Shown here: positions 1 to 37,923 of the stretch, one piece after another
How the letters are laid out: each line of letters starts with the position of its first letter
How positions within the stretch are numbered: position 1 is the first letter of the stretch
Assembly (NCBI GenBank): GCA_040143965.1
Contig: JASJQH010000029.1
Location: 1 to 44,615 of the forward strand
DNA: 44,615 bases
Direction: 5' to 3'
Source of the DNA: Basidiobolus ranarum
Lineage: Eukaryota
The notes under the pieces: generated by a model
The model's database searches: none
What the model saw: the letters and a program-made list of their open reading frames with translations, nothing else
What the model was told of the DNA's origin: nothing
Position numbers and translations under genes: made by a program

Positions 1-150
1 TAGATTCTACTGACTTAACTTTTCTGCTTTGCAACATTCATACAAATACTCCAGATCTCCATATATTAGTTAAGAAACTACAAAAGTAGTTATGGCTTCT
101 TTGTTTTGTTTTAAATAAAGATTTCACCTTTTGGTGACTGTCTCCCCCCC

Positions 151-589
151 CTAAACGTTGAGCCTATATTCTTGATCCCAATGCTCATCAGGAAACTGTT
201 CAAGTGGTGCTTCGTGGGCCACTCCAGAGTTATTGATTAAAAAATCTAGATGTTGTTCTTGCTCAGCAACTCTTTGGGCTAAAGCTTCGCATCCTTGTTT
301 AGATGAAAGATCGGCTTGTATGGCCTTGCATATACCTGGGCCGAGCTTTGTTAACTCGGTGGCCACATTCTCAATTAATTCCAAACGACGACTTGCAATG
401 TACACTTTGGCTCCATTAGCTATCAGAGCTTTTGTGATCATAAGACCAATGCTACATCTAACATTAGTAATTCAATGTATGGACCGGATTAATGAATTCT
501 TACCCGGTACCGCCTCCGGTAATTAAGCCAACACGTCCAGAAACATCAAATAGATTTCCGACAGTGAATTGAGATAACTCAGTAGACAT
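151..589 (-). CDS. Short-chain dehydrogenase/reductase (RhlG/gluconate dehydrogenase-like), N-terminal half only; truncated or interrupted at ~151
   Basis: ATG at 589 gives MSTELSQFTVGNLFDVSGRVGLITGGGTG, then a GT-AG intron (503-452), then IGLMITKAL...DFLINNSG...RLNV. The TGxxxGIG and NNSG SDR motifs are present. The frame ends in TAG followed by a G-run, and no YxxxK catalytic exon is visible in 1-150. Confidence 0.8.
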
Positions 590-995
590 TTTAGCAATTT
601 GTTGATGAATAGTTAAAGATTTGCTCGAAGTTGAAGCATGCTTTTATATTTTTTGTTCTTTATAGAAGACTATCAATGCTTAGTAAAAGAAATGAGGATA
701 TTGTGCTGTTTAACTTGGCGTGTTCATTCACTCCATTACACCATCAGCTTCCATTCGTATATGTTTCAAAATGTATCCACCATGTATTTGTAAGCCAAAT
801 AAAACTGATTGCTTTACTCCGCAGCAGTGTTGATTAGTAATATGTATATCGATTGCGAATTTAGAATGTTGCTAGTATAGAGCCAGTGCCTTGCCTAGGC
901 AATATGGGAAATAGATGAGAAAGCAACATAATGTTTATTTACCCAATGGGCTAGTGAGGCTGGTGGCAATAGCATTTGAACTCTCCAAGCCAGTC

Positions 996-2222
996 ATGCG
1001 CTTTCAGTATACTTCCTTAGTTCTCGTGGCCTTGTGTAAAGTAGCCAAAGCGCAAGAAGCGGAGCTCACCACTTTGGCTGAAATTGACCCTACCTGGATT
1101 AGTGAATATGACCTCTCAGGTGTGCCAGATGTGGTACCAAGACCAGTGGGATCTGGTACCTGTCCAAGCTCTCAATGTGGACCGAAAGATTGTGAGAACT
1201 GCTGAGAAACGTGTGGTAACTGTGCCTTACCTGATGACATCTATGGCTGTCAAGCTGGTCAGTGGGCTCTAACATTTGATGATGGACCATCTCAATATAC
1301 ATCGCAACTACTCGATATCCTTGCTGCAGCCAATGTTCAAGCCACATTTCAAATGATTGGCTCAAATGTGATCCAATTTCCAGATGTAGTTAAAAGAGCT
1401 TATGATGAAGGTCACCAAATTGCTTCTCACTCATGGTCGCATCCACATTTCATGTTTCTCTCTAAGGATCAGATTGTCGCCGAGGTAAAAGCTACAGAGA
1501 ATGCTCTCCTTAATATTACTGGGGCAAAGCCTGCTTATATTCGCCCACCCTATGATGAGGCAGATGATCATGTTAAAGCCATCTTCAAGGCAATGGGATA
1601 TCATACTTTGTTATGAAACATGGGTACCCCGGATTGGGATATTTCAGAGAAGGAAAATGCTAGTCTCATCCTAGACTCTTTCAAGTCCGCTATAACTAAA
1701 GGTACTGATCTTAACGCTCACAACGACCTCGGATTCATCTCTTTGCATCATGATATCTATATCGATACTGTTCAACAGACACCCAATATAGAACAACTTC
1801 TGGCTCAGTATAATTTCCATCTTGTTCTTGCTTATGAATGTGCCAACTTACCACCATATCAAAACCTGAGTCAGAACACTACCACTGTACCCAGTAGTAC
1901 TCCTACCTCTAGTGGAAGTACCACTACTAATACTTCTGGGCCGAATCCAAATAATGGGAATGACGATGATGATGGTACTGGCTCGAATTCAGGCGGTAAT
2001 GATTCGGACTCCGCTAGTGCCCCTGATGAAGATGGCTCAGACTCTAACACTAGTGCCCCTGATGATGACTCTAACACTAAGGTTGTATCTAAAAATACAG
2101 TTTCATTATCGAAACGAGGCGAGAGCAACTTTTCTGGCAGAACATCAAATATGTCAACTTATAGAGTATCACTCCACTCTCTCCTATTCATACTCTTTTC
2201 TTCACATTTCTTGTGGGCTTAA
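996..2222 (+). pseudogene. Secreted, probably GPI-anchored chitin/polysaccharide deacetylase (CE4/NodB) with two in-frame TGA codons (pseudogene or recoded gene)
   Basis: One continuous frame joins ORFs 915-1205, 1353-1616 and 1620-2222. It contains a signal peptide (MRFQYTSLVLVALC), a Cys-rich segment, the motifs TFDDGP, HSWSHP, RPPY and ISLHHD, a Ser/Thr/Asp-rich stalk and a hydrophobic C-terminus. TGA codons lie at 1203-1205 and 1614-1616. Confidence 0.8.
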
Positions 2223-2300
2223 GTGTTATTCAGAGACATATTACATCATGTGATCTTCATTTCAAAGATATTTTATTTCGTTCTATCGTGTATCTTTCTT

Positions 2301-2383
2301 CATTTCATTTTACCATATCTTCATCTATTGACATACGCATTTCATTTTACCATATCTTCATCTATTGACATACGCATTTCATT
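2301..2383. repeat. Perfect 37-bp tandem duplication (2.2 copies)
   Basis: CATTTCATTTTACCATATCTTCATCTATTGACATACG at 2301 and 2338, with a partial third copy at 2375. Confidence 0.95.
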
Positions 2384-3048
2384 ATCATTTCGAATTGACT
2401 TGGTCTGCACTAAGAAATAAAAGGAAATATTTACTTCAAATGCATGTTATTAGTTTTGGAGGATGGGCTTTTAGTACTGAAGATAAGACTAGACCTATCT
2501 TTGGAGATTCTGTTCTCGCTGTGCTTACTTTGACACTATTTGAAATGATGAAGATAGCTATATGAAGTTGAAAACTCAACTATGATTTGGCCTTAGCAAA
2601 AGATCCATCCCACGTGTTTCATGACATATGCGCACAGGAATGGCGTTGTGGAATGTTTAAGGCAGTAAAGTTATATATAAACGATAATTCTTTTGCTAGT
2701 GTTATTGTGGGAATATCGGGTATGGAAATGCAACTCATGCATAACTCATACTAGTATGGAAGATATAACCAGTGCCTACCAAGTGTAAATACTGCAATAT
2801 GCAAGTAACAGAAGCAGTACTATGTATAAGAAATAAATGAGTCGGCTTTATTTCAACCATTTACAGCATCAAGTTCGTATAAGAAAGAGTCAGTTTTATT
2901 TTAAGGAGTAGAGTTGGAATGCAGGTTAGACTCCAACATATGAACATTAATGCATAGCCCGTGGGTGAATAGGGTATACATATATATAATAAGACTATTA
3001 CATGAGTAAATATAGTATACACGTATATATTAAGACCATTCCAATTCT

Positions 3049-4244
3049 CTAGTTATATGATAATTTCAGCGGTGAAACACCCACTACAGGGCCAACATGT
3101 TTTTCTATAAATGCCATGTCTTCAGCTACTTTTGTGCGGTTTTCCATGTAATTTTGGAAGCCCAGCGGGCTAGTATTTTCTATCATCCAGATAGGTTTGA
3201 TGCCTGGTGGTGGAGGGATATCAGTTCGTTGAGACCATGTGTGGGACATAAGAGTTTTCTGAACATTATAGGATGTCAGCCAGCTGATGTATAGTTTTGC
3301 AGTAGCTGGATGTTTAGCGTCTTTGAAAATGCCACCTAATTGTGCCCATGACTGGAAGAAAGTCTTTTTGGGTAAAATAGTTACACTTTTATCTGTGGCT
3401 GTTGGTGTGAGAGAGCCCTTACTCGTAAAAGTAACGTGACATGTTCCATTGTTGATATAGAATGAGGGTGTACCTGTCCCCCTCACAGCGATCGGCCTCT
3501 GATCAAGGAAAGCTTTCAACCAGCCCTCGCCATTTTGTTCTATCACTTTCATAAACTGATAAAGCACAGCATCATCGTCATTAGGATAGGTGAATATGAT
3601 TTTACCGCCATTTAGTTCCGGTCTCAGATAATCCGCGGCTTCAATTGGTCGTTGAGTCAGAGGAATCCTGGTGCTAACTAAATTCGTAAAGTAGTATATG
3701 TGAGTTGCCCAATAGTAAGCTTCTTTATCTTTATAAGGATCATATATGTATTCAAAGCCAATGGGTTTATATCTGAGAGGACAAGAGTTAGACAAAGTAA
3801 ACCGATAATTCTATTTCAGACAACTTACTGCATCAACACTCCTTGGGATTTCCAGCGCGGGAAATCTTGTACGGTTTGTAAATGAGCCAAATCAGCCTCG
3901 AGAGCATGACCCCCCTGAGCAAGCTGTTTGTCAATCAAACGATTATGATATTTACTAAGATCCACAGTAATGTTGAGCTTTGTTCCAGGGAATCTACTTT
4001 CAAATGCCTTGACTATCGTGGAAGCACCATTCGGCAAGTCACCACCAGCGTAGACATTTACAAGACCACCCTCTTCTAGAGCATCTTTATAAAGCCTTTC
4101 AAGCTCAGTTTCCTCGGCCATCACATATGGAGGCATACAAGTGCCACGAAACGGTTCACGGCATATAGAAAGCGAATTGACGATGCTACGAGGGAGCAGT
4201 GCAGCCATAGCGGTCAGCACAATAGATGAGAGAGTAAGCTTCAT
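3049..4244 (-). CDS. Secreted periplasmic-binding-protein-like II (ABC-type Fe3+/polyamine/thiamine solute-binding family) protein, paralog A
   Basis: Exons 4244-3829 and 3772-3049 with a 56-nt GTAAGT..CAG intron. Signal peptide MKLTLSSIVLTAMAALL. Family motifs YAGGD, DLSKYH, HLQTVQDFPRWK, YPNDDDAVLYQF and HPATAKLYISW. Confidence 0.85.
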
Positions 4245-4953
4245 TTGTTCTAACAATATTTGAAGGCTTCAGCTAGCACATGGATAATATAGAAATTGTT
4301 ACTGGCACTGTTGGTTTTATAGAATTTGTTGTGTTGGATAGAAAACTTCCAAGCATAACTCATCAACGAAGTTGCTCATGCCCATATTGATGTCATACTC
4401 AAGGGTCTACATATATTAACAAAGCTGACGTTATACTCAATGATGGTTGAACTAGCAACAAATGAGCAGGGTTGATGTAGATCAAAATTTACTGTAAGCG
4501 CGATGATTGCCAGTCTCTTTATCTTCATGTGAGAAGATGAAGAATCCGATTGATATGAAGGAGCGAAAGAATTACAACGTAGATGCAACTCTGTAGATCT
4601 CTATAGAGCGTACATTCCCCTCCCCTACCATCGAAAGATGACAGTCTTTGTGATAGCTCCTATCTCTAAAATCACATGTATATTGAAAATACATTATGCA
4701 AGATGAACTCCCTATTGAAATCACGGGTTATGTATTCCTTTCGGATAATGCTAGTACTACATATCAAACGATGAAGAACTCACAGCGTACGTGAATACTA
4801 ATATCCAACCGTATACCTTGGTTGAGAACACTGCTTATATCCATTGTAGATCATTTTCTAGTACGGAAAATCACTAGTACAGATACTGCAAATACTGGAT
4901 CTGCCATTTATTATCTGTAATTAACTGGATAAATGCGAGGACCAAAAAAATAA

Positions 4954-6149
4954 TCAAGAATAGGATAATCTCAACGACGAGACCCCGCGTACAGGGCCAA
5001 CAAATTGCTGTATATAGGCCTTATCTTCTTCAACTTTGGTACGGTTTTGCATGTAACTTTGGAAACCGAGAGGGTCAGTATTCTCTATATCCCATATATG
5101 CTTGTAACCTGGTGGTGGGGGGATGTCAACTCGTGGAGACCATATATGAGAATATAACGTCTTTTGAACATTATACGATGTCAACCAACTGACGTAGAGT
5201 TTTGCGGCAGCCGGATGCTTAGCTTCGTTGAAAATGCCACCTTGCTGTGCCCATGACTGGAAGAAGGTTTTTTTGGGGAGAAGCGTTAAAGATTTGGCTG
5301 TCGCGTCTGGTGTCAGCGAACTCTTACTCGTAAAAGTGACTAAGCATGTTCCATTATTAATATAGAACGGGGGTGTACCTGTTCCACGAACAGCTATCGG
5401 CTTCTGTCGAATGAATGCCCGCATCCAATCTTCGCCATTCTCCTCTATCACCTTCATGAACTGATAAAGAATGGCATCGTCATCATTAGGATACGTATAC
5501 ATAATTTTACCTCCAAAGAACTGTGGTTTTAAGTAATCCTGGGCTTCAGTTGGTCTTTGGTCTGGAGGAATACTGGTGCTAACCAGATTTGTGAAGAAAT
5601 TGATATGAGTTGGCCAATAATAGCCTTCTTCATCTTTATAAGGATCATAAAGATGCGAAAAGCCGACAGGCTTGTACCTAAAGAAAAGAGAATTAGTCAA
5701 GGTACAACGACAACTGATTTTCCGACTACTTACTGCATCAATCTTCCCTCGGATTTCCAGCGGGGGAAGTTTTGGATTGTCTGTAAATGAGCTACATCTG
5801 TCTCCAAAGCGCCACCACCTTGGGCCAACTGCCTATCAATCAATACATCATGATATTTGCTAATATCCATCGTAATGTTAAGCGTTGTTCCCGGAAATCT
5901 TTTTTCAAAAGCCTTAACTATCCCTACAGAGGCAAACGGTAAATCACCTCCAGCCAAGACATTGACGTGACCCCCTTCCTCAAGAGCATCCTGATAAAGC
6001 CTTTCGATCTCCTTTTCCTCAGCTTCAACGTATGGAGGCTCACAAGTTCCACGGAATTTTACCGCACATAAGGAACGAGAATTGGCAGAGGCAAAGGGTA
6101 GCAATGCAGCAGTTGCTGTAAAGAGCACAAATGAAAGATGAGATTTCAT
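4954..6149 (-). CDS. Secreted periplasmic-binding-protein-like II solute-binding protein, paralog B
   Basis: Exons 6149-5734 and 5677-4954 with a 56-nt intron at the same position as in paralog A. Signal peptide and motifs LAGGD, DISKYH, YPNDDDAILYQF and HPAAAKLYVSW. Aligns end-to-end with paralog A. Confidence 0.85.
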
Positions 6150-6757
6150 TGTATGATAGATTGCAGCAACACTGATGGTTTACACAGATTGCTGGGTGGC
6201 TTTAAAGGATTTGGAGGATTGTTGGATCATCGAATATGTGATGATACTTGGCTAAGTTCAAACACCAAAGTAAAACTCCAGAATTTAGAATCGATGCACT
6301 GTTGAATCGTGGAGTTTGAGGTTTTCTGCGATTGAAATGTACATACTACATATATATACTTGCTAATTTAATTCTCAGTGACTTTCATCAAAGCAAGAAG
6401 TTATTTAAGCTCTGACATACCTGAGTTGTTGAACAAACTGTGGATGTAAGGATGTCACAATGTGTATAGTCTAGATTGATATTGAAGGATAAATTGATCA
6501 ATATAAATTGTCGCTGACCCGGTTCCATGAAGCATATGCAATGTACGTGGCATATGAAGCGAGGGTGTATGAGGCGACGTCGCGTATTATCGTTAAACAT
6601 TATTATTGCTTTTGAATTCTTCGTTCCAATAAGTGGAAATTCATACGCCTGTTTACTGTTTCAACCTTTGCAAGGCTCTATCTGTACACTTCCTATAGTT
6701 TCCTTATGGCTTAAAGTAGGCACTCACATAGTTGGTTGCTTAGTAATCATTCACATG

Positions 6758-9605: not shown

Positions 9606-11231
9606 ATGATACGTTTGACTTTACTAGTCTCCGTCCTCTCTGCCATTGCGACTACCTCTTCTGCTGGTGTGTTTCGTAGGGAAAATCTCGAACGCGTAAC
9701 TATCGTTCATACCAACGATCTTCATGCTCATCTGGATGAGTTCAATAAGTTTGGTACTGACTGTACTGCAGATCAGATAAAGAACCAACAATGTATGGGT
9801 GGAGTTGCTCGTCAAAAGACTGTGATTGACCGTCTTCGCAAGCAGTATCCAGACCTCTATTTATTTGACTCTGGAGATCAATTCCAAGGAACCCTCTTTT
9901 ACAACTTTTATAAAGGAAATGTCACTGCCCAAGCCATGAATCAACTCAAGTATGATCTCATGACCGTTGGAAATCATGAATTTGATGATGGTCCGGATCA
10001 TTTAGCCAAATTCATCAAGCAGTTGAATTTCCCAGTGGTAAGTTCCAACATTGATGCCCGAAAGGAACCTACTTTCAACAAGGCCGTCAGACCATACCAT
10101 ATTTTCCGTAAGCATAACCTAGGAGTTATTGGATACTTAACCAACACCACTGCCGCTATTGCTCCTAAAGCCTCTAACATCACCTTCTTCGACCCCGCTC
10201 CATACGTTCAAAAATACGTTAACGAATTGCGTAGGAAAGGAGTCAAGAAGATCATTTGTGTTAGTCACAATGGCTACCAGGAGGACTTGGATCTCGCTAG
10301 ACGTACTAAAGGAATTGACCTAATTGTCGGTGGACACAGTCACACCTTCCTCTCTAGTACCTGGAATGACCCCAACTATCTAGCGTCCAAGGGACCCTAC
10401 GCCACAAACGTGAAGAATCTAGACAATGAAAATACCTACGTTGTCCAAGCTTGGGCATGGGGAAGATATGTAGGTCACGTTGACTTATATTACGATAGAA
10501 AGGGAAAGATTGCTGCCATTGGTGGGGAGCCAATTTACCTGGACCAAAAGATACCCAAGGATCGTAAGCTTGAACGTCAGGTAAAAGAATGGCGCAAACC
10601 ATTCGATGCGTTTGCTGAAGTAATCGTTGGAAAGGCCTCGGATTCCTTTGATCAAGCTTCATGTCAAAGCAAGGAATGTACTGCAGGAAACCTAGTAACT
10701 GATGCTATGCTCTGGGGACGTCGTGAATCCCCAGATGTACGTTTTGCCTTAATTAACTCTGGTGGTATTAGAGCAGGAATTGCTGCTGGTGAAGTAAGAG
10801 TACGAGATGTAATAACCATCGCTCCATTTGGAAATGCTCTCTCTGATTTGAGTTTAACTGGAAAGCAAATAGTTACTATGTTAGAAGGAGTTGCTGGACG
10901 TACCAACACCGTATTCAACAAACCAGTCACCAGTTTCATTCAAGTTTCAGGATTGAAATTCACCATTAACTCTAGTGCCCCAGCGGGCTCCAAAGTTGGA
11001 AATGTGGAGATCTTGAGTAAAGATAAGAAATCTTTCGAACCCCTAAACTCGGATACTTCCTATCGTTTTGTAACCTTAGATTTCATTGTTTCCGGTGGTG
11101 ACAACATCTTACCCGTACCGGCATCCACTCCTGCACCTTTAGATACTCTTGACTCAGTCTTGACAAATTACATCAAAGAAAAGGGAACTGTCACTCCCTA
11201 TATCGATGGCCGGATCACCATCAAGGCCTAA
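9606..11231 (+). CDS. Secreted 5'-nucleotidase/UDP-sugar hydrolase (UshA/CD73 family), intronless
   Basis: Signal peptide; metallophosphoesterase motifs HTNDLH, DSGDQFQG, GNHEFD, SH and GGHSH; C-terminal 5'-nucleotidase domain (NSGGIRA, PFGN, QVSGL). Confidence 0.93.
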   Translation: MIRLTLLVSVLSAIATTSSAGVFRRENLERVTIVHTNDLHAHLDEFNKFGTDCTADQIKNQQCMGGVARQKTVIDRLRKQYPDLYLFDSGDQFQGTLFYNFYKGNVTAQAMNQLKYDLMTVGNHEFDDGPDHLAKFIKQLNFPVVSSNIDARKEPTFNKAVRPYHIFRKHNLGVIGYLTNTTAAIAPKASNITFFDPAPYVQKYVNELRRKGVKKIICVSHNGYQEDLDLARRTKGIDLIVGGHSHTFLSSTWNDPNYLASKGPYATNVKNLDNENTYVVQAWAWGRYVGHVDLYYDRKGKIAAIGGEPIYLDQKIPKDRKLERQVKEWRKPFDAFAEVIVGKASDSFDQASCQSKECTAGNLVTDAMLWGRRESPDVRFALINSGGIRAGIAAGEVRVRDVITIAPFGNALSDLSLTGKQIVTMLEGVAGRTNTVFNKPVTSFIQVSGLKFTINSSAPAGSKVGNVEILSKDKKSFEPLNSDTSYRFVTLDFIVSGGDNILPVPASTPAPLDTLDSVLTNYIKEKGTVTPYIDGRITIKA

Positions 11232-24714: not shown

Positions 24715-25269
24715 TCAAAGATGCATGTCTTCAATAATCACTCTACGAGCCTTCAACACTTCTGACTCGGGTTTAGGGAACTTGATAGTAAGCAAGCCGT
24801 TCTGTGTTGTAGCACGTACATTCTCCATATCAATCTTTCCTGGGAAAATGATGGTTCTCTCAAATTGGCCAGCAGATCTTTCTTGAGCCCAAACAGTGGT
24901 GCGATTGATGTCAAATGGATTGCTAGACCAATTTGCCTTGAAACTGGGATCGTGTTTGACCGCTTCACCACCACGAAGAATCACAATATTTTCTCCAATG
25001 ATTTGGAGGTCGATCTTATCTTTAGGGATTCCAGCAAGCTCTGCCTCAATAGTGTAAGCGTAATTCGATTCCAGCATGTTAATACGTGGCTTAGAGCCCA
25101 GTGGAATTGGTTTAGATCCAGCAAATCTAGACCACCATTGATTGACCCCAAGGCGCCTGTTGCTTTGGAAGGAGCGAGACATGACGCGCATCAAATGCCA
25201 CGAATAACGAGAATAGAGGGCTGAACCAACCCAGAACATAGGCGAGGTTAAAATACGTTGCAAGAACAT
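24715..25269 (-). CDS. Small heat-shock protein (Hsp20/alpha-crystallin) with an Arg/Ser-rich N-terminal extension
   Basis: Alpha-crystallin motifs PRINMLES..YTIEAELAGIPKDKI, WAQERSAGQFERTIIFP and ATTQNGLLTIKFPK, plus C-terminal VII; intronless. Confidence 0.9.
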   Translation of the reverse strand: MFLQRILTSPMFWVGSALYSRYSWHLMRVMSRSFQSNRRLGVNQWWSRFAGSKPIPLGSKPRINMLESNYAYTIEAELAGIPKDKIDLQIIGENIVILRGGEAVKHDPSFKANWSSNPFDINRTTVWAQERSAGQFERTIIFPGKIDMENVRATTQNGLLTIKFPKPESEVLKARRVIIEDMHL

Positions 25270-25337
25270 GTCAGATAGTTAAACTTTTAATGATTTAATT
25301 ACCTTACGTTGCTTAGTATATATACCTTGGATTTGGC

Positions 25338-25599: not shown

Positions 25600-25759
25600 A
25601 TATGATTTTCGTGGAGCAGGGCATGGTTTTGACCTCCCATAGCATGAAACCTGCGGATGGATATTAGCCATCACTTGAGCTAAACTCCAGCATTTAAAAC
25701 CACCTCGAAAGAAACGGTGTGGTATAATCATTTACATCAATCGACTTTACAATCAAGCC

Positions 25760-26320
25760 ATGTGTTTCTCTCGTCGATTTGCAGCTGTCATGGAGCAAAA
25801 TTCTGCTCACGCTAATACTCGCTTTATGGAGAAGATGCTTAAGATGGATCAAAAAATGGCCCATAGGATGGCTTATGCTGAGTCCAAATTCGCTCGTAAA
25901 CTTCAAAAGATGGAGACTAACAACTGCTGGGGCTATAAAGGTTGGAGGCATCAACATCTCAACCGTGGTCCTCAACCAAAAGTAAACCTAGCTGAATCCA
26001 ATCAGAGCTACAGCTTGGAGGTGGAATTGGCTGGCTTCAATAAAGAAAATATCGGTCTGGAACTGGTTAATGATAAAGTGGCTATCCTTCGTGGTGAAGT
26101 AGGTGCGGTAAATTCGGAAATTAAAAAGGAAGCTTTCGAGCAATTTAACACTACCTGGGCTCAAGAACGTTTGATCGGAGATTTTGAGCGAACCTTTGTA
26201 TTCCCCGATCGGTTCAACCTTGACGGAGTCAAAGCTACCATGAAGGATGGCTTGCTGAAGGTGGAATTTCCCAAGCACACTGAAGACGTACTCAAAGTTA
26301 AAGCCATAAAAATAGAATAA
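25760..26320 (+). CDS. Small heat-shock protein (Hsp20/alpha-crystallin), divergent paralog
   Basis: PKVNLAES..YSLEVELAGFNKENI, WAQERLIGDFERTFVFP, ATMKDGLLKVEFPK and C-terminal IKIE (IxI motif); intronless. Confidence 0.9.
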   Translation: MCFSRRFAAVMEQNSAHANTRFMEKMLKMDQKMAHRMAYAESKFARKLQKMETNNCWGYKGWRHQHLNRGPQPKVNLAESNQSYSLEVELAGFNKENIGLELVNDKVAILRGEVGAVNSEIKKEAFEQFNTTWAQERLIGDFERTFVFPDRFNLDGVKATMKDGLLKVEFPKHTEDVLKVKAIKIE

Positions 26321-33041: not shown

Positions 33042-34955
33042 ATGGAGCCACAAACCTCCATTGACCGTGGTTTCCCTTCTAATTTAGCTGCTTCAGAGGA
33101 ACGTTCTGATGAAGAGACCTATTTTTTAAAGCCCAAAGCGTCAATCGAGGAAATTCCCTTATGTTTGACCAATGAGGATAATAGCAATTTAGTGCCGTTA
33201 AGGGTGGAGACGCAAATTAGTTATTGGAAAAAAGCTTTCATTTTATTTGCAATATGCTTTGCTTCTGCTACAACTCATTTCGTTGCTCATATGCTGGGCC
33301 CACTCAAAGATATGCTAAAAACAGTATGTGTCTGCTTATTCTATTTGCAACTGGTGTTTCCGTTGTTTATAGCATAACCGAATTTTTGTTTTGTTTTCAG
33401 AATCTCGAAATTAATAACACTCAATTCGGATTACTGCAATCGTCCCTATCTTTGATTCCTACCTTCTTTCCCTTTATTGGAGGTGTGTTCTTGGATGCTT
33501 TTGGAGCGGAGTATAGTGCCATTTTCGCTTCAACTTTTGTCGTGAGTGGTCAGGCTATTCTTGCCATAGGTGCCGTCGCGTTGAACTTTGAGTTGATGGT
33601 GCTAGGACTATTTGCTGTTGGGTAAGAGATTAAAGGCAAATTCGTCAAGAGTTTTCGATTACTTACGCTGTTAAATTCCATAATATATTCAAGTGCTGGA
33701 AACGGCTGGATGGTCATGATAAGTGAAGCCATAGTTGTCAAGTTTTTTCGTGGACGCAGTCTATCTTTGATGATCGGAATTCTAATTGCTATTGGAAAAA
33801 TGGTATGCGCATATAATCTTGTCTATGACATAGCTTAGCTGATATTAATTCAACCATGAAGTCAAGCTTCCTGGCTGCTGGATTGACATTACCTATTGCC
33901 AACGCATTCCAATATTTCGGAGGTGTTTTCTGGTTTTCTACGGGACTCTGCTTTTTGTCTTGGATAATGACGCTGTTTTACGTGATCTTTGTTCGTTCTC
34001 TCGCTATCAAACGCCCTACTCCTAATCTTCCCAAACACAAGCATGTAAACTTTAGAAAGATCCTTCATTTCTCGGATACTGTCTGGATGTATCTCTTTCT
34101 TGGAATGGTCTTTGATGCTGTGTGGGCTCCATTCTTACACTTATCAAGGTATACTCTCCTATGTCGTTTATCCACGTCACAGACACTAACATAACCTATT
34201 AGCAATATGATTAAGGTTCAGTTCAACACCAACGACATCGTAGCAGCATGGCACTCTTCCATATCCTTCTTATTGCCGATGTTTCTAAACCCTTTCCTGG
34301 GGATTTTCTTGGATAGATTTGGGAAACGATGCTCCATTCGTATGTAGTTTCAACACAATTTGTAGCTTGCATACACGGATGAATAACCTATATATTACTG
34401 TTAACTCTAGTGATTACCGCCTCAGTGTTTTTGTTGATTTCAGTTTTACTCGTGCACCATCCTGTCAATCAGAATCCCGTCTGGCCACTTCTATTCTTTG
34501 CAGGATCTCTTTCATTTGGGCCTTTACCCTTGGTTACCTCAGTGCCGTTACTGTTTCCCACTGATGAGCATATTGGTACCGCGTTAGGAATTCACCGTTG
34601 TTTAGATAGTATCGGTGCCACTTTGATGGACACAATCACTGGAGTGATTCAGGATAAGGACTCTGTACAAGGATATGACGGGGTTCTTCAACTTCTTACT
34701 ATCCTCTCGTTGGTATGTCTTGCTGGATCCATCGTATTTTGGTGGATGGATAGAGTCTTTGAAGATGGAATCCTAGAAGCAGGAGTTTTAACCCGAAACA
34801 GTAAACTAAAGTCCAAAGCGATTGCCAATTCACTCGCACATAGTAGACCACCGCCCAAGAGAACCAAAGTCTACGCAGGAATCTCATTTGGAGCATTTAT
34901 TCTGTGTTGGATAATCTTCTGGAGTGTTAATTTTGAAATCGCTTTTCAGATTTAA
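33042..34955 (+). CDS. Major facilitator superfamily transporter (MFSD1-like)
   Basis: Multi-exon with many hydrophobic helices, QFGLLQSS, and MFS motif-A-like GGVFLDAFG and GIFLDRFGKR. Confidence 0.8.
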
Positions 34956-37131: not shown

Positions 37132-37923
37132 ATGTCAAGAAAAAACAATCTTCCAGCTGGCTGGCCGTCAGGAGTCACTTATATCCCTACTTCTGTATGG
37201 GCCAATAATACAACAGCAGAAGTGAAAGAAAAATACAAGCCAATTCCCTCAAAAGTGAATACTCACATACCTGATCCGACGAGTTACTTCCAAGTATTAA
37301 AGCAGCACGAAATAACTCCAGACGGAAGAAAAACTAAGATCAAAGCCATTACTGATCCTGAGCATCCATGTTGTGGTGCTTTCGGTTTATTCGCTGCCTG
37401 TAACTTTGAACCTAAACAACATGTAGTGGATTATTGTGGATATATCCACTTGTCTGAGGATGGTGAAACCGACCCTGAGATTCAATCAAGTGATTATGTA
37501 CTGAGGTTTACGACCGAGCTTTCGATAGATGCAGGTCGTCAAGGAAATGAAGGACGTTTTGTCAATGATTTTCGTGGTGTACCTAAAGAGCCTTCAAAGA
37601 GTCAAAGTGACCTGACAAACAGAAAGAATAAAGATAACATAAGAGGTCAAAGTAAAGGCAAAGATAAAAAGAATGGAAATAACTCCAAGTCACACTCGAA
37701 TGAGACAAACCATCGAAAAAACAACCACGTACAAGAGAAAACCCTTCCAAATGTTCATTTTGTAAATTATTTGGATGAACGAACCAAAGAAGTTCGTATT
37801 GGAATTTTCACCATTCGCAAAATTCGTAAGGGTGATGAATTTCTCATAAGTTACGGCAAGTCCTTTTGGCAATCACGTCTGGGCTCCGTTCCTAGCGCCT
37901 TTGTAGATGTCAGCTATGAATGA
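37132..37923 (+). CDS. SET-domain protein (putative lysine methyltransferase), intronless
   Basis: GAFGLFA, DYCG, IDAGRQGNEGRFVNDFRG and IRKGDEFLISYGKSFW. Confidence 0.85.
   Translation: MSRKNNLPAGWPSGVTYIPTSVWANNTTAEVKEKYKPIPSKVNTHIPDPTSYFQVLKQHEITPDGRKTKIKAITDPEHPCCGAFGLFAACNFEPKQHVVDYCGYIHLSEDGETDPEIQSSDYVLRFTTELSIDAGRQGNEGRFVNDFRGVPKEPSKSQSDLTNRKNKDNIRGQSKGKDKKNGNNSKSHSNETNHRKNNHVQEKTLPNVHFVNYLDERTKEVRIGIFTIRKIRKGDEFLISYGKSFWQSRLGSVPSAFVDVSYE

Follow-up and report, generated by a model that had tools for sequence, protein, structure and literature searches.

The gene at positions 996–2222 of the forward strand is, with a probability that we put at roughly 0.85, a pseudogene of the non-processed (duplicated-gene) kind, still young and derived from a secreted CE4 chitin deacetylase that belongs to a large Basidiobolus paralog family. 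The window, i.e., the whole stretch of Basidiobolus ranarum DNA that was analyzed, is 44,615 nucleotides long. The reading as a pseudogene is based on three observations: the gene carries changes at conserved sites in excess, its branch is 11-fold longer than that of its sister sequence, and its number of stops fits neutral drift. The same observations bear out the pseudogenization that the original prediction had favored over editing or readthrough of the two in-frame stops.

The interrupted frame and its relatives

In translation, positions 996–2222 form one collinear, intronless CE4 (NodB) chitin deacetylase frame of 408 codons and a terminal TAA. Within it, only codons 70 and 207 are stops, and both read TGA. 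Residues 1–404 of its top homolog, P0001, align collinearly with the frame from the signal peptide through the hydrophobic C-terminal tail, and no frameshift or intron appears across the whole-length alignment with homologs. The five remaining Trp codons are all TGG. The gene is thus as originally described, namely with two in-frame TGA codons in an otherwise complete frame that uses TGG for its other Trp residues. A tblastn search found no second chitin deacetylase copy elsewhere in the window. The features of the gene are the following:

996–2222 (+): the whole probable chitin deacetylase pseudogene, from the translation, collinear with P0001
996–1061 (+): probable signal peptide MRFQ...AKAQEA of ~22 residues, suggested by the hydrophobic N-terminus common to the homologs
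1203–1205 (+): first TGA, codon 70, in the Cys-rich segment C-E-N-C-stop-E-T-C-G-N-C, from the translation
1260–1607 (+): NodB/CE4 polysaccharide deacetylase domain PF01522 (Pfam), residues 89–204, between the two stops
1554–1556 (+): codon 187, GAT (Asp), which changes RPPYG to RPPYD; Gly in 120/120 of the best 120 homologs
1569–1571 (+): codon 192, CAT (His); Arg in 113/120 of the best 120 homologs
1614–1616 (+): second TGA, codon 207, in HTLL-stop-NMGTPDW; Trp in 120/120 of the best 120 homologs
1623–1631 (+): codons 210–212, GGT ACC CCG (G-T-P); D-T-L in close relatives
1866–2222 (+): Ser/Thr/Asp/Asn-rich linker and hydrophobic C-terminal tail, from the translation and the alignment

The hydrophobic tail resembles, and may once have served as, a GPI-anchor signal, an assignment that draws on the shape of the sequence and on what is known of fungal deacetylases. 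Translation from position 996 would end at the first TGA after 69 residues. The source annotation lists 996–1202 (69 residues) and 1620–2219 (200 residues, from an internal ATG at 1620) as separate proteins and thus reads both TGA codons as stops, while four other ORF variants of the gene that were looked up are absent among the annotated proteins of the public collection.

The membership in the CE4 family is clear from the domain searches. The full frame matches PF01522 with an E value of 1.3e-35 (122.5 bits against a cutoff of 23.1, residues 89–204), and the stop-to-stop ORF 1206–1613 alone does so with 1.6e-36. In the PDB, 35 solved CE4 chains are matched at E ≤ 1e-3, the best of them (7bly) at 4.7e-30. 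In the protein search, 1123 of 5039 candidates are homologs with E ≤ 1e-3. Basidiobolus accounts for all of the best 20 named homologs, and the best 120 of the 1123 include 15 from B. ranarum and 10 from B. meristosporus; no metagenome relative in this search is above ~55% identity. P0001 (KAK9695660.1) is a B. ranarum chitin deacetylase of 404 residues that has 87% identity to the query at 100% coverage, the identity ranging from 87 to 93% depending on the columns counted. The architecture, consisting of a signal peptide, a Cys-rich segment, the NodB domain, a Ser/Thr/Asp-rich linker, and a hydrophobic tail, is that of a Basidiobolus/Mucoromycota subfamily.

The conservation counts given here and below are taken from an alignment with the best 120 of the 1123 homologs, in which the stops of the frame are written as X. 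The column of codon 207 is Trp in all 120 sequences. At codon 70, Trp is found in all six nearest relatives, and the column as a whole contains Phe in 78 of the best 120 homologs, Trp in 22, Tyr in 4, Asp in 3, Ala in 1, and a gap in 8. The motifs cited in the original prediction, with Trp at both stops, hold broadly for the subfamily; at codon 70, the wider family mostly has Phe.

Motifs 1, 2, and 5 of the family are kept. F94, D95, D96, and G97 of motif 1 (TFDD) and H145 and H149 of motif 2 (H-S/T-x-x-H) agree with invariant columns, and H252 of motif 5 (L-x-H-D) is present, the adjoining Q251 (110/118) being replaced by His. Motif 3 (R-P-P-Y-G) retains R183, P184, and P185 but is broken by the change of the invariant G187 to Asp, and motif 4 (W-N-x-D-x-x-D-W) retains D213 and W214 but is broken by the stop at W207 and by the change of D210 to Gly (Asp in 119/120 of the best 120 homologs). 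The departures at G187 and D210 had been noticed previously, as had those in the segment HPHFMFL, where L152 is Leu in 115/120 and S154 is Ser in 107/120 of the best 120 homologs; all of these are confirmed by the alignment. A further departure noticed in the segment NDLGF is also present, but it falls in a weakly conserved column, P245 being Pro in only 74/120 of the best 120.

We take D95, D96, H145, H149, R183, D213, and H252 to be the catalytic or metal-binding residues of CE4 enzymes, motif 1 presumably providing the catalytic base and a metal-binding Asp, motif 2 the metal-binding His pair, and motif 5 the catalytic His. All seven are present in the frame. Given these residues and a frame that is not shifted, a protein in which both stops were read as Trp might be an active enzyme. 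It should be mentioned here that seven untouched residues are expected by chance, because only ~10 changes are found in the ~200 residues of the domain.

Relaxed constraint on the window copy

The analysis covered the 343 alignment columns in which at least 60 sequences have a residue, and in 66 of these the conservation reaches 90% or more. At nine of the 66, the window copy departs from the consensus, namely by K115Q, T146S, L152F, I171L, G187D, R192H, W207stop, D210G, and Q251H, in columns such as K115, which is Lys in 114/120 of the best 120 homologs. The 19 closest relatives (P0001–P0019) have only 0–3 departures each, even though several of them are only ~50% identical to the window copy. 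More departures than in the window copy are found in distant subfamily members with less than 40% identity, as well as in P0020 and P0021.

A comparison with P0001 shows where these changes arose. The two sequences differ at 36 residues, in addition to 16 gapped columns, and the differences were polarized using six outgroups (P0005, P0004, P0002, P0007, P0003, and P0006). This assigns 17 changes to the branch of the window copy and 3 to that of P0001 (binomial p = 0.0026), counts that leave out 16 of the 36 differences, mostly in the variable ends, which are not polarizable. For residues 88–290, the corresponding numbers are 10 and 0 (p = 0.002). Seven of the 17 changes on the window branch are located in conserved columns, which make up 19% of those examined. 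Conserved sites are thus not spared on the window branch, and the apparent enrichment at such sites is at least partly an artifact, because variable sites are harder to polarize.

For the maximum-likelihood (ML) tree, we used 24 of the 121 alignment rows (residues 1–300 of the window copy, P0001–P0019, and four outgroups), P0020 being left out due to its aberrant ends. The window copy and P0001 are sisters in this tree with an SH-aLRT support of 97, and their end branches are 0.073 and 0.0067, respectively, i.e., 11-fold longer for the window copy. The next relative is P0005, another B. ranarum protein. In the conserved part of the alignment, the sole indel specific to the window copy is the loss of one codon at E-K-E-N, where the relatives are one residue longer.

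These results are consistent with a scenario in which a recent duplication would have produced two copies of a chitin deacetylase gene. The sister copy, represented by B. ranarum P0001, would have stayed under strong purifying selection, while the window copy would have become redundant and drifted, gaining ordinary point mutations. Among these would be both TGG-to-TGA transitions, along with several substitutions in residues that flank the active site and are elsewhere invariant. Translation should then stop after 69 residues, ahead of the catalytic domain, such that no deacetylase would be made. The scenario implies that P0001 and the window copy reside in the same genome, P0001 probably being the recent paralog, and that the transcript of the window copy is presumably not rescued. 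Should P0001 instead be an ortholog from another strain, the window copy would still be dead, but as a unitary loss rather than as a redundant duplicate.

Origin of the stops and alternative readings

Under neutral mutation, the nonsense share of the amino-acid-altering changes in this gene is calculated to be 4.7–5.3%, for transition/transversion weights of 1 to 4. Among 17–33 changes, 0.8–1.7 nonsense changes are thus expected, and the probability of finding at least two is 0.19–0.53. Two stops are therefore about what neutral drift predicts. The gene contains 33 transition paths to a stop, of which 14 begin at TGG, 7 of the latter being TGG>TGA. Considering transitions only, the chance that both stops fall at Trp codons is 0.18, and the chance that both are TGG>TGA is 0.045. 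The latter coincidence is mildly unusual. Stops at Trp positions are no surprise in themselves, since a single transition converts TGG into a stop.

The original prediction had put forward a targeted C-to-T decay of the gene, and we have examined whether a specific deamination of cytosines (RIP-like, methyl-CpG, or deaminase hypermutation of a duplicate) rather than ordinary mutation could have driven the decay. A single-base explanation is possible for 16 of the 17 changes on the window branch. The spectrum of these 16 consists of 5 G>A, 2 C>T (3 with the ambiguous L152F), 2 A>G, 1 T>C, 1 A>C, and 4 transversions of ambiguous origin, at least 5 being transversions overall. Deamination would account for the 7–8 of the 16 that are G:C>A:T, among which are both stops, but A>G, T>C, and transversion changes make up the other half. 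In addition, among the inferred G:C>A:T changes, R192H (CGT>CAT) alone falls in a CpG, and the bases flanking the other G>A and C>T sites vary from site to site.

The RIP indices of the gene, 0.77 for TpA/ApT and 1.38 for (CpA+TpG)/(ApC+GpT), are within the range of the other tiles of the window and of its intact genes, and both are on the non-RIP side of the usual thresholds, such that no RIP signature is detected in the gene by these indices. A RIP-type CpA>TpA change, moreover, turns TGG into TAG, not into the TGA found here, and the earlier remark that the pattern is unlike RIP is thus correct. A further observation that could be cited in favor of deamination is that the CpG observed/expected ratio is low near the gene, but on balance a targeted decay is very unlikely. 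Over the first ~4 kb of the contig, where the gene lies, the ratio is 0.46–0.56, the lowest of the window, compared to a mean of 0.76 (sd 0.12) over its 145 tiles.

Five neighboring ORFs that were looked up are all exact matches to annotated proteins of the contig and end at ordinary stops. Two of the five, 37132–37920 (+) and 24718–25269 (−), end in TGA, which partly substantiates the earlier statement that the neighbors use TGA as a stop; the other three end in TAA or TAG. The standard code is in operation around the gene. A mitochondrial code, in which TGA is Trp, can be discarded, as the contig has intron-bearing nuclear genes, two of them ending in TGA, and the nearest relatives of the gene are nuclear Basidiobolus paralogs. 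One of the neighbors, the 5'-nucleotidase at 9606–11228, has its best named matches in B. meristosporus (84%), B. ranarum (82%), and B. meristosporus (79%), none of the named matches being nearly identical. The placement of P0001 in the same genome as the window copy is based on source tags and on this neighbor.

A Pfam survey of the 127 stop-to-stop ORFs of at least 70 amino acids in the window reveals four families that are split over several ORFs, namely NST1, Pkinase, Vps52, and ELO. A GT...AG intron can be read in the sequence at the NST1 junction and at one Vps52 junction, and the frame changes in the ORF coordinates suggest introns also at the Pkinase, ELO, and remaining Vps52 junctions. 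No other interrupted gene was seen in the window, the survey being a weak one that detects only stops cutting a Pfam domain; it would have missed the present gene itself, the domain of which is wholly between the two stops. A tRNA scan of the window found no tRNA genes, and hence no suppressor tRNA there, and a comparison with Rfam at gathering thresholds gave no match in the window for any family, SECIS included.

With regard to recoding, a full-length deacetylase could be obtained either by A-to-I editing in some stage of the life cycle, which would turn UGA into a UGI that is decoded as Trp, or by readthrough with a near-cognate Trp-tRNA. The close relatives do have Trp at both stop sites, and the frame is otherwise intact with the presumed catalytic residues kept. 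In readthrough, however, the low efficiency at each stop would be multiplied over the two, and the bases that follow them are G and A rather than C, which is the leaky context. Editing, for its part, would act on an A that comes after G, and in local folds neither A keeps to a hairpin loop, as the predicted state shifts with the length of the flank (15, 25, or 40 nt). In addition, the constraint on the gene is relaxed rather than conserved, as seen from the departures at 9 of the 66 columns, the 17 versus 3 changes, and the longer branch. Nothing favors editing or readthrough beyond the Trp positions, which are explained by the 14 of 33 transition paths that begin at TGG.

The restorative editing of fungal "pseudogenes" is a real phenomenon. 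According to the available portions of PMC10776026 and PMC11156358, it corrects UAG to UGG in F. graminearum and N. crassa; the restorative sites of F. graminearum, 77 in 71 pseudogenes, are all UAG>UGG. More than 70% of the fungal editing sites are there given as having U at position −1, with the edited A's favoring hairpin loops, and the same portions describe the system only for the sexual stage of filamentous ascomycetes and attribute the basidiomycete reports to errors. The triplet UGA is absent from the main text of PMC10776026. The present stops do not show this signature, both being TGA with the A preceded by G, nor is the rest of the gene under the purifying selection that accompanies restorative editing. 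None of the titles and abstract openings listed by a literature search reports RNA editing for Zoopagomycota, for Mucoromycota, or for early-diverging fungi in general. We therefore consider functional recoding highly improbable. The specific proposal that Basidiobolus converts both UGA to UGG in one life stage, or reads through them with insertion of Trp, and thereby gates the deacetylase, deserves slightly less credence still. If it were true, such a stage-gated reading (e.g., in zygospore or capilliconidium formation) would constitute restorative recoding outside Ascomycota, with a triplet preference that differs from the known one in having G at −1.

Selenocysteine was also considered and rejected, because the homologs have Trp at codon 207 (120/120 of the best 120) and Phe, Trp, or Tyr at codon 70, not Cys or Sec. 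As to the SECIS search, only 5 of 16 fungal selenoprotein genes are stated to have a detectable SECIS in the preprint 10.1101/314781, the main text of which names five Sec-using fungal species, Basidiobolus not being among them.

An error in sequencing or assembly, with TGG at one or both sites in the true genome and the gene intact, is about as improbable as recoding. The published Basidiobolus assemblies are fragmented, with a BUSCO completeness of 54–90% (10.1101/2025.03.31.646025). However, two independent substitution errors, both creating a stop, would be needed in a gene that has no indel errors, and the residue differences and gapped columns relative to P0001, with G187D and D210G among them, indicate a distinct, diverged locus rather than P0001 with miscalled bases. 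It is likely that the A bases at both stops are correct at the read level.

Least probable of all is that the fragments are products in their own right, i.e., a secreted Cys-rich peptide of 69 residues (996–1202) or a Ser/Thr-rich protein of 200 residues (from the ATG at 1620): both are annotated as proteins of the contig in the public collection, but this is the expected output of an automatic gene caller at in-frame stops, both are pieces of one collinear deacetylase frame, and the longer one has no Pfam hit and starts inside the frame, so that it lacks an N-terminal signal peptide.

Significance and comparison with known systems

The gene is in all likelihood an ordinary young pseudogene and not a case of genetic recoding. 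Its biological weight is small, as it adds one more dead paralog to a CE4 family that Basidiobolus has expanded. A single pseudogene entry would describe the locus better than the annotated proteins of 69 and 200 residues, and both fragments should be left out of CE4 counts in comparative CAZyme studies. The gene can also serve as a clean negative control for scans of stop-codon recoding, since no codon is more exposed than TGG to transitions that create a stop, and stops at Trp positions alone are therefore no signal of editing.

The solved fungal CE4 enzymes (7bly, 2y8u, 2iw0, and 8he1) belong by sequence to the same NodB fold family, with E values from 4.7e-30 to 8.6e-26. They differ in that Ala or Thr occupies the position of the Trp207 that is invariant in the subfamily, as seen in three alignments, and in that they lack the N-terminal Cys-rich segment aligned in the Basidiobolus gene. 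P0001 shares the entire architecture, and the difference is that the window branch carries the two stops together with G187D, R192H, D210G, L212P, L152F, S154F, K115Q, and Q251H.

The targets of restorative editing of the PUK1 type, as far as they are described in the portions of PMC10776026 available, resemble the present gene in having premature stops at Trp codons, mostly from TGG by G-to-A, in an otherwise open frame. In those genes, however, UAG is the premature codon, its edited A is preceded by U, selection has retained the conserved stops, and the system is known only from filamentous ascomycetes in their sexual stage (PMC10776026). The decaying Basidiobolus gene, by contrast, is from a zoopagomycete and is interrupted by UGA codons in which the A follows G. 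The selenoprotein genes of early-branching fungi have in common with it an in-frame UGA in a fungus outside Dikarya, but the homologs of the Basidiobolus gene carry Trp or Phe, not Cys or Sec, at the UGA sites.

The closest match is provided by the duplicated-gene pseudogenes of expanded families. Like the present gene, these are recent paralogs of an intact, constrained gene, have acquired point nonsense mutations with the gene structure kept, and evolve faster at the protein level, invariant sites included. The window copy exhibits no difference of substance from this class; it is a very young member, as yet free of frameshifts.

Annotation and surroundings of the pseudogene

In the public annotation of the contig, two pieces of the chitin deacetylase pseudogene (996-2222 (+)) appear as separate proteins of 69 aa (996-1202) and 200 aa (1620-2219), both of which derive from the dead deacetylase. 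For its NodB-domain piece, no annotated protein was found under the one start looked up.

The CpG observed/expected ratio is the lowest of the contig at positions 1-3900, with values of 0.46-0.56 against a mean of 0.76 (sd 0.12, 145 tiles). GpC is normal there. The low-CpG region reaches past the pseudogene; either cytosine methylation on a regional scale or chance could account for it. The following repeat lies downstream of the pseudogene, about 80 bp from its stop codon:

2301-2383: perfect tandem duplication, 37-bp unit, 2.2 copies, 100% matches

A close paralog on another contig

P0020, a B. ranarum protein encoded outside the window on a contig of 8387 b, is a close paralog of the pseudogene. 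It deviates at 11 of the 64 columns that are at least 90% conserved among the protein homologs, including the R183C substitution in motif 3 and the loss of the motif-5 (L-x-H-D) stretch. Neither its N-terminus nor its C-terminus is related to the rest of the family. P0020 looks like a second close paralog that is either damaged or mis-modelled, and decay may be common in this clade of the deacetylase family.

Other features of the window

The Pfam survey of stop-to-stop ORFs returned a pair of small heat-shock protein genes, separated by ca. 400 bp:

24718-25278 (-) and 25679-26317 (+): divergent HSP20 gene pair

A further match involves the C-terminal part of the COX3 profile (E 6.4e-4, 20.1 bits, under the cut-off of 23.8), and could be either a piece of mitochondrial DNA that lies in the nuclear genome or a chance similarity:

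33829-34191 (+): weak COX3-like match

Closer to the pseudogene, two genes whose large 3' exons span ca. 250 codons each are arranged in tandem:

3052-4268 (-) and 4957-6179 (-): tandem paralogous gene pair

In the same survey, the two genes gave weak matches to PF13531, a bacterial extracellular solute-binding protein family (E 1.7e-4, 21.9 bits, and E 1.5e-5, 25.4 bits; cut-off 25). On the basis of this similarity, the pair may belong to a gene family of bacterial origin; Basidiobolus is a genus noted for horizontal transfer.
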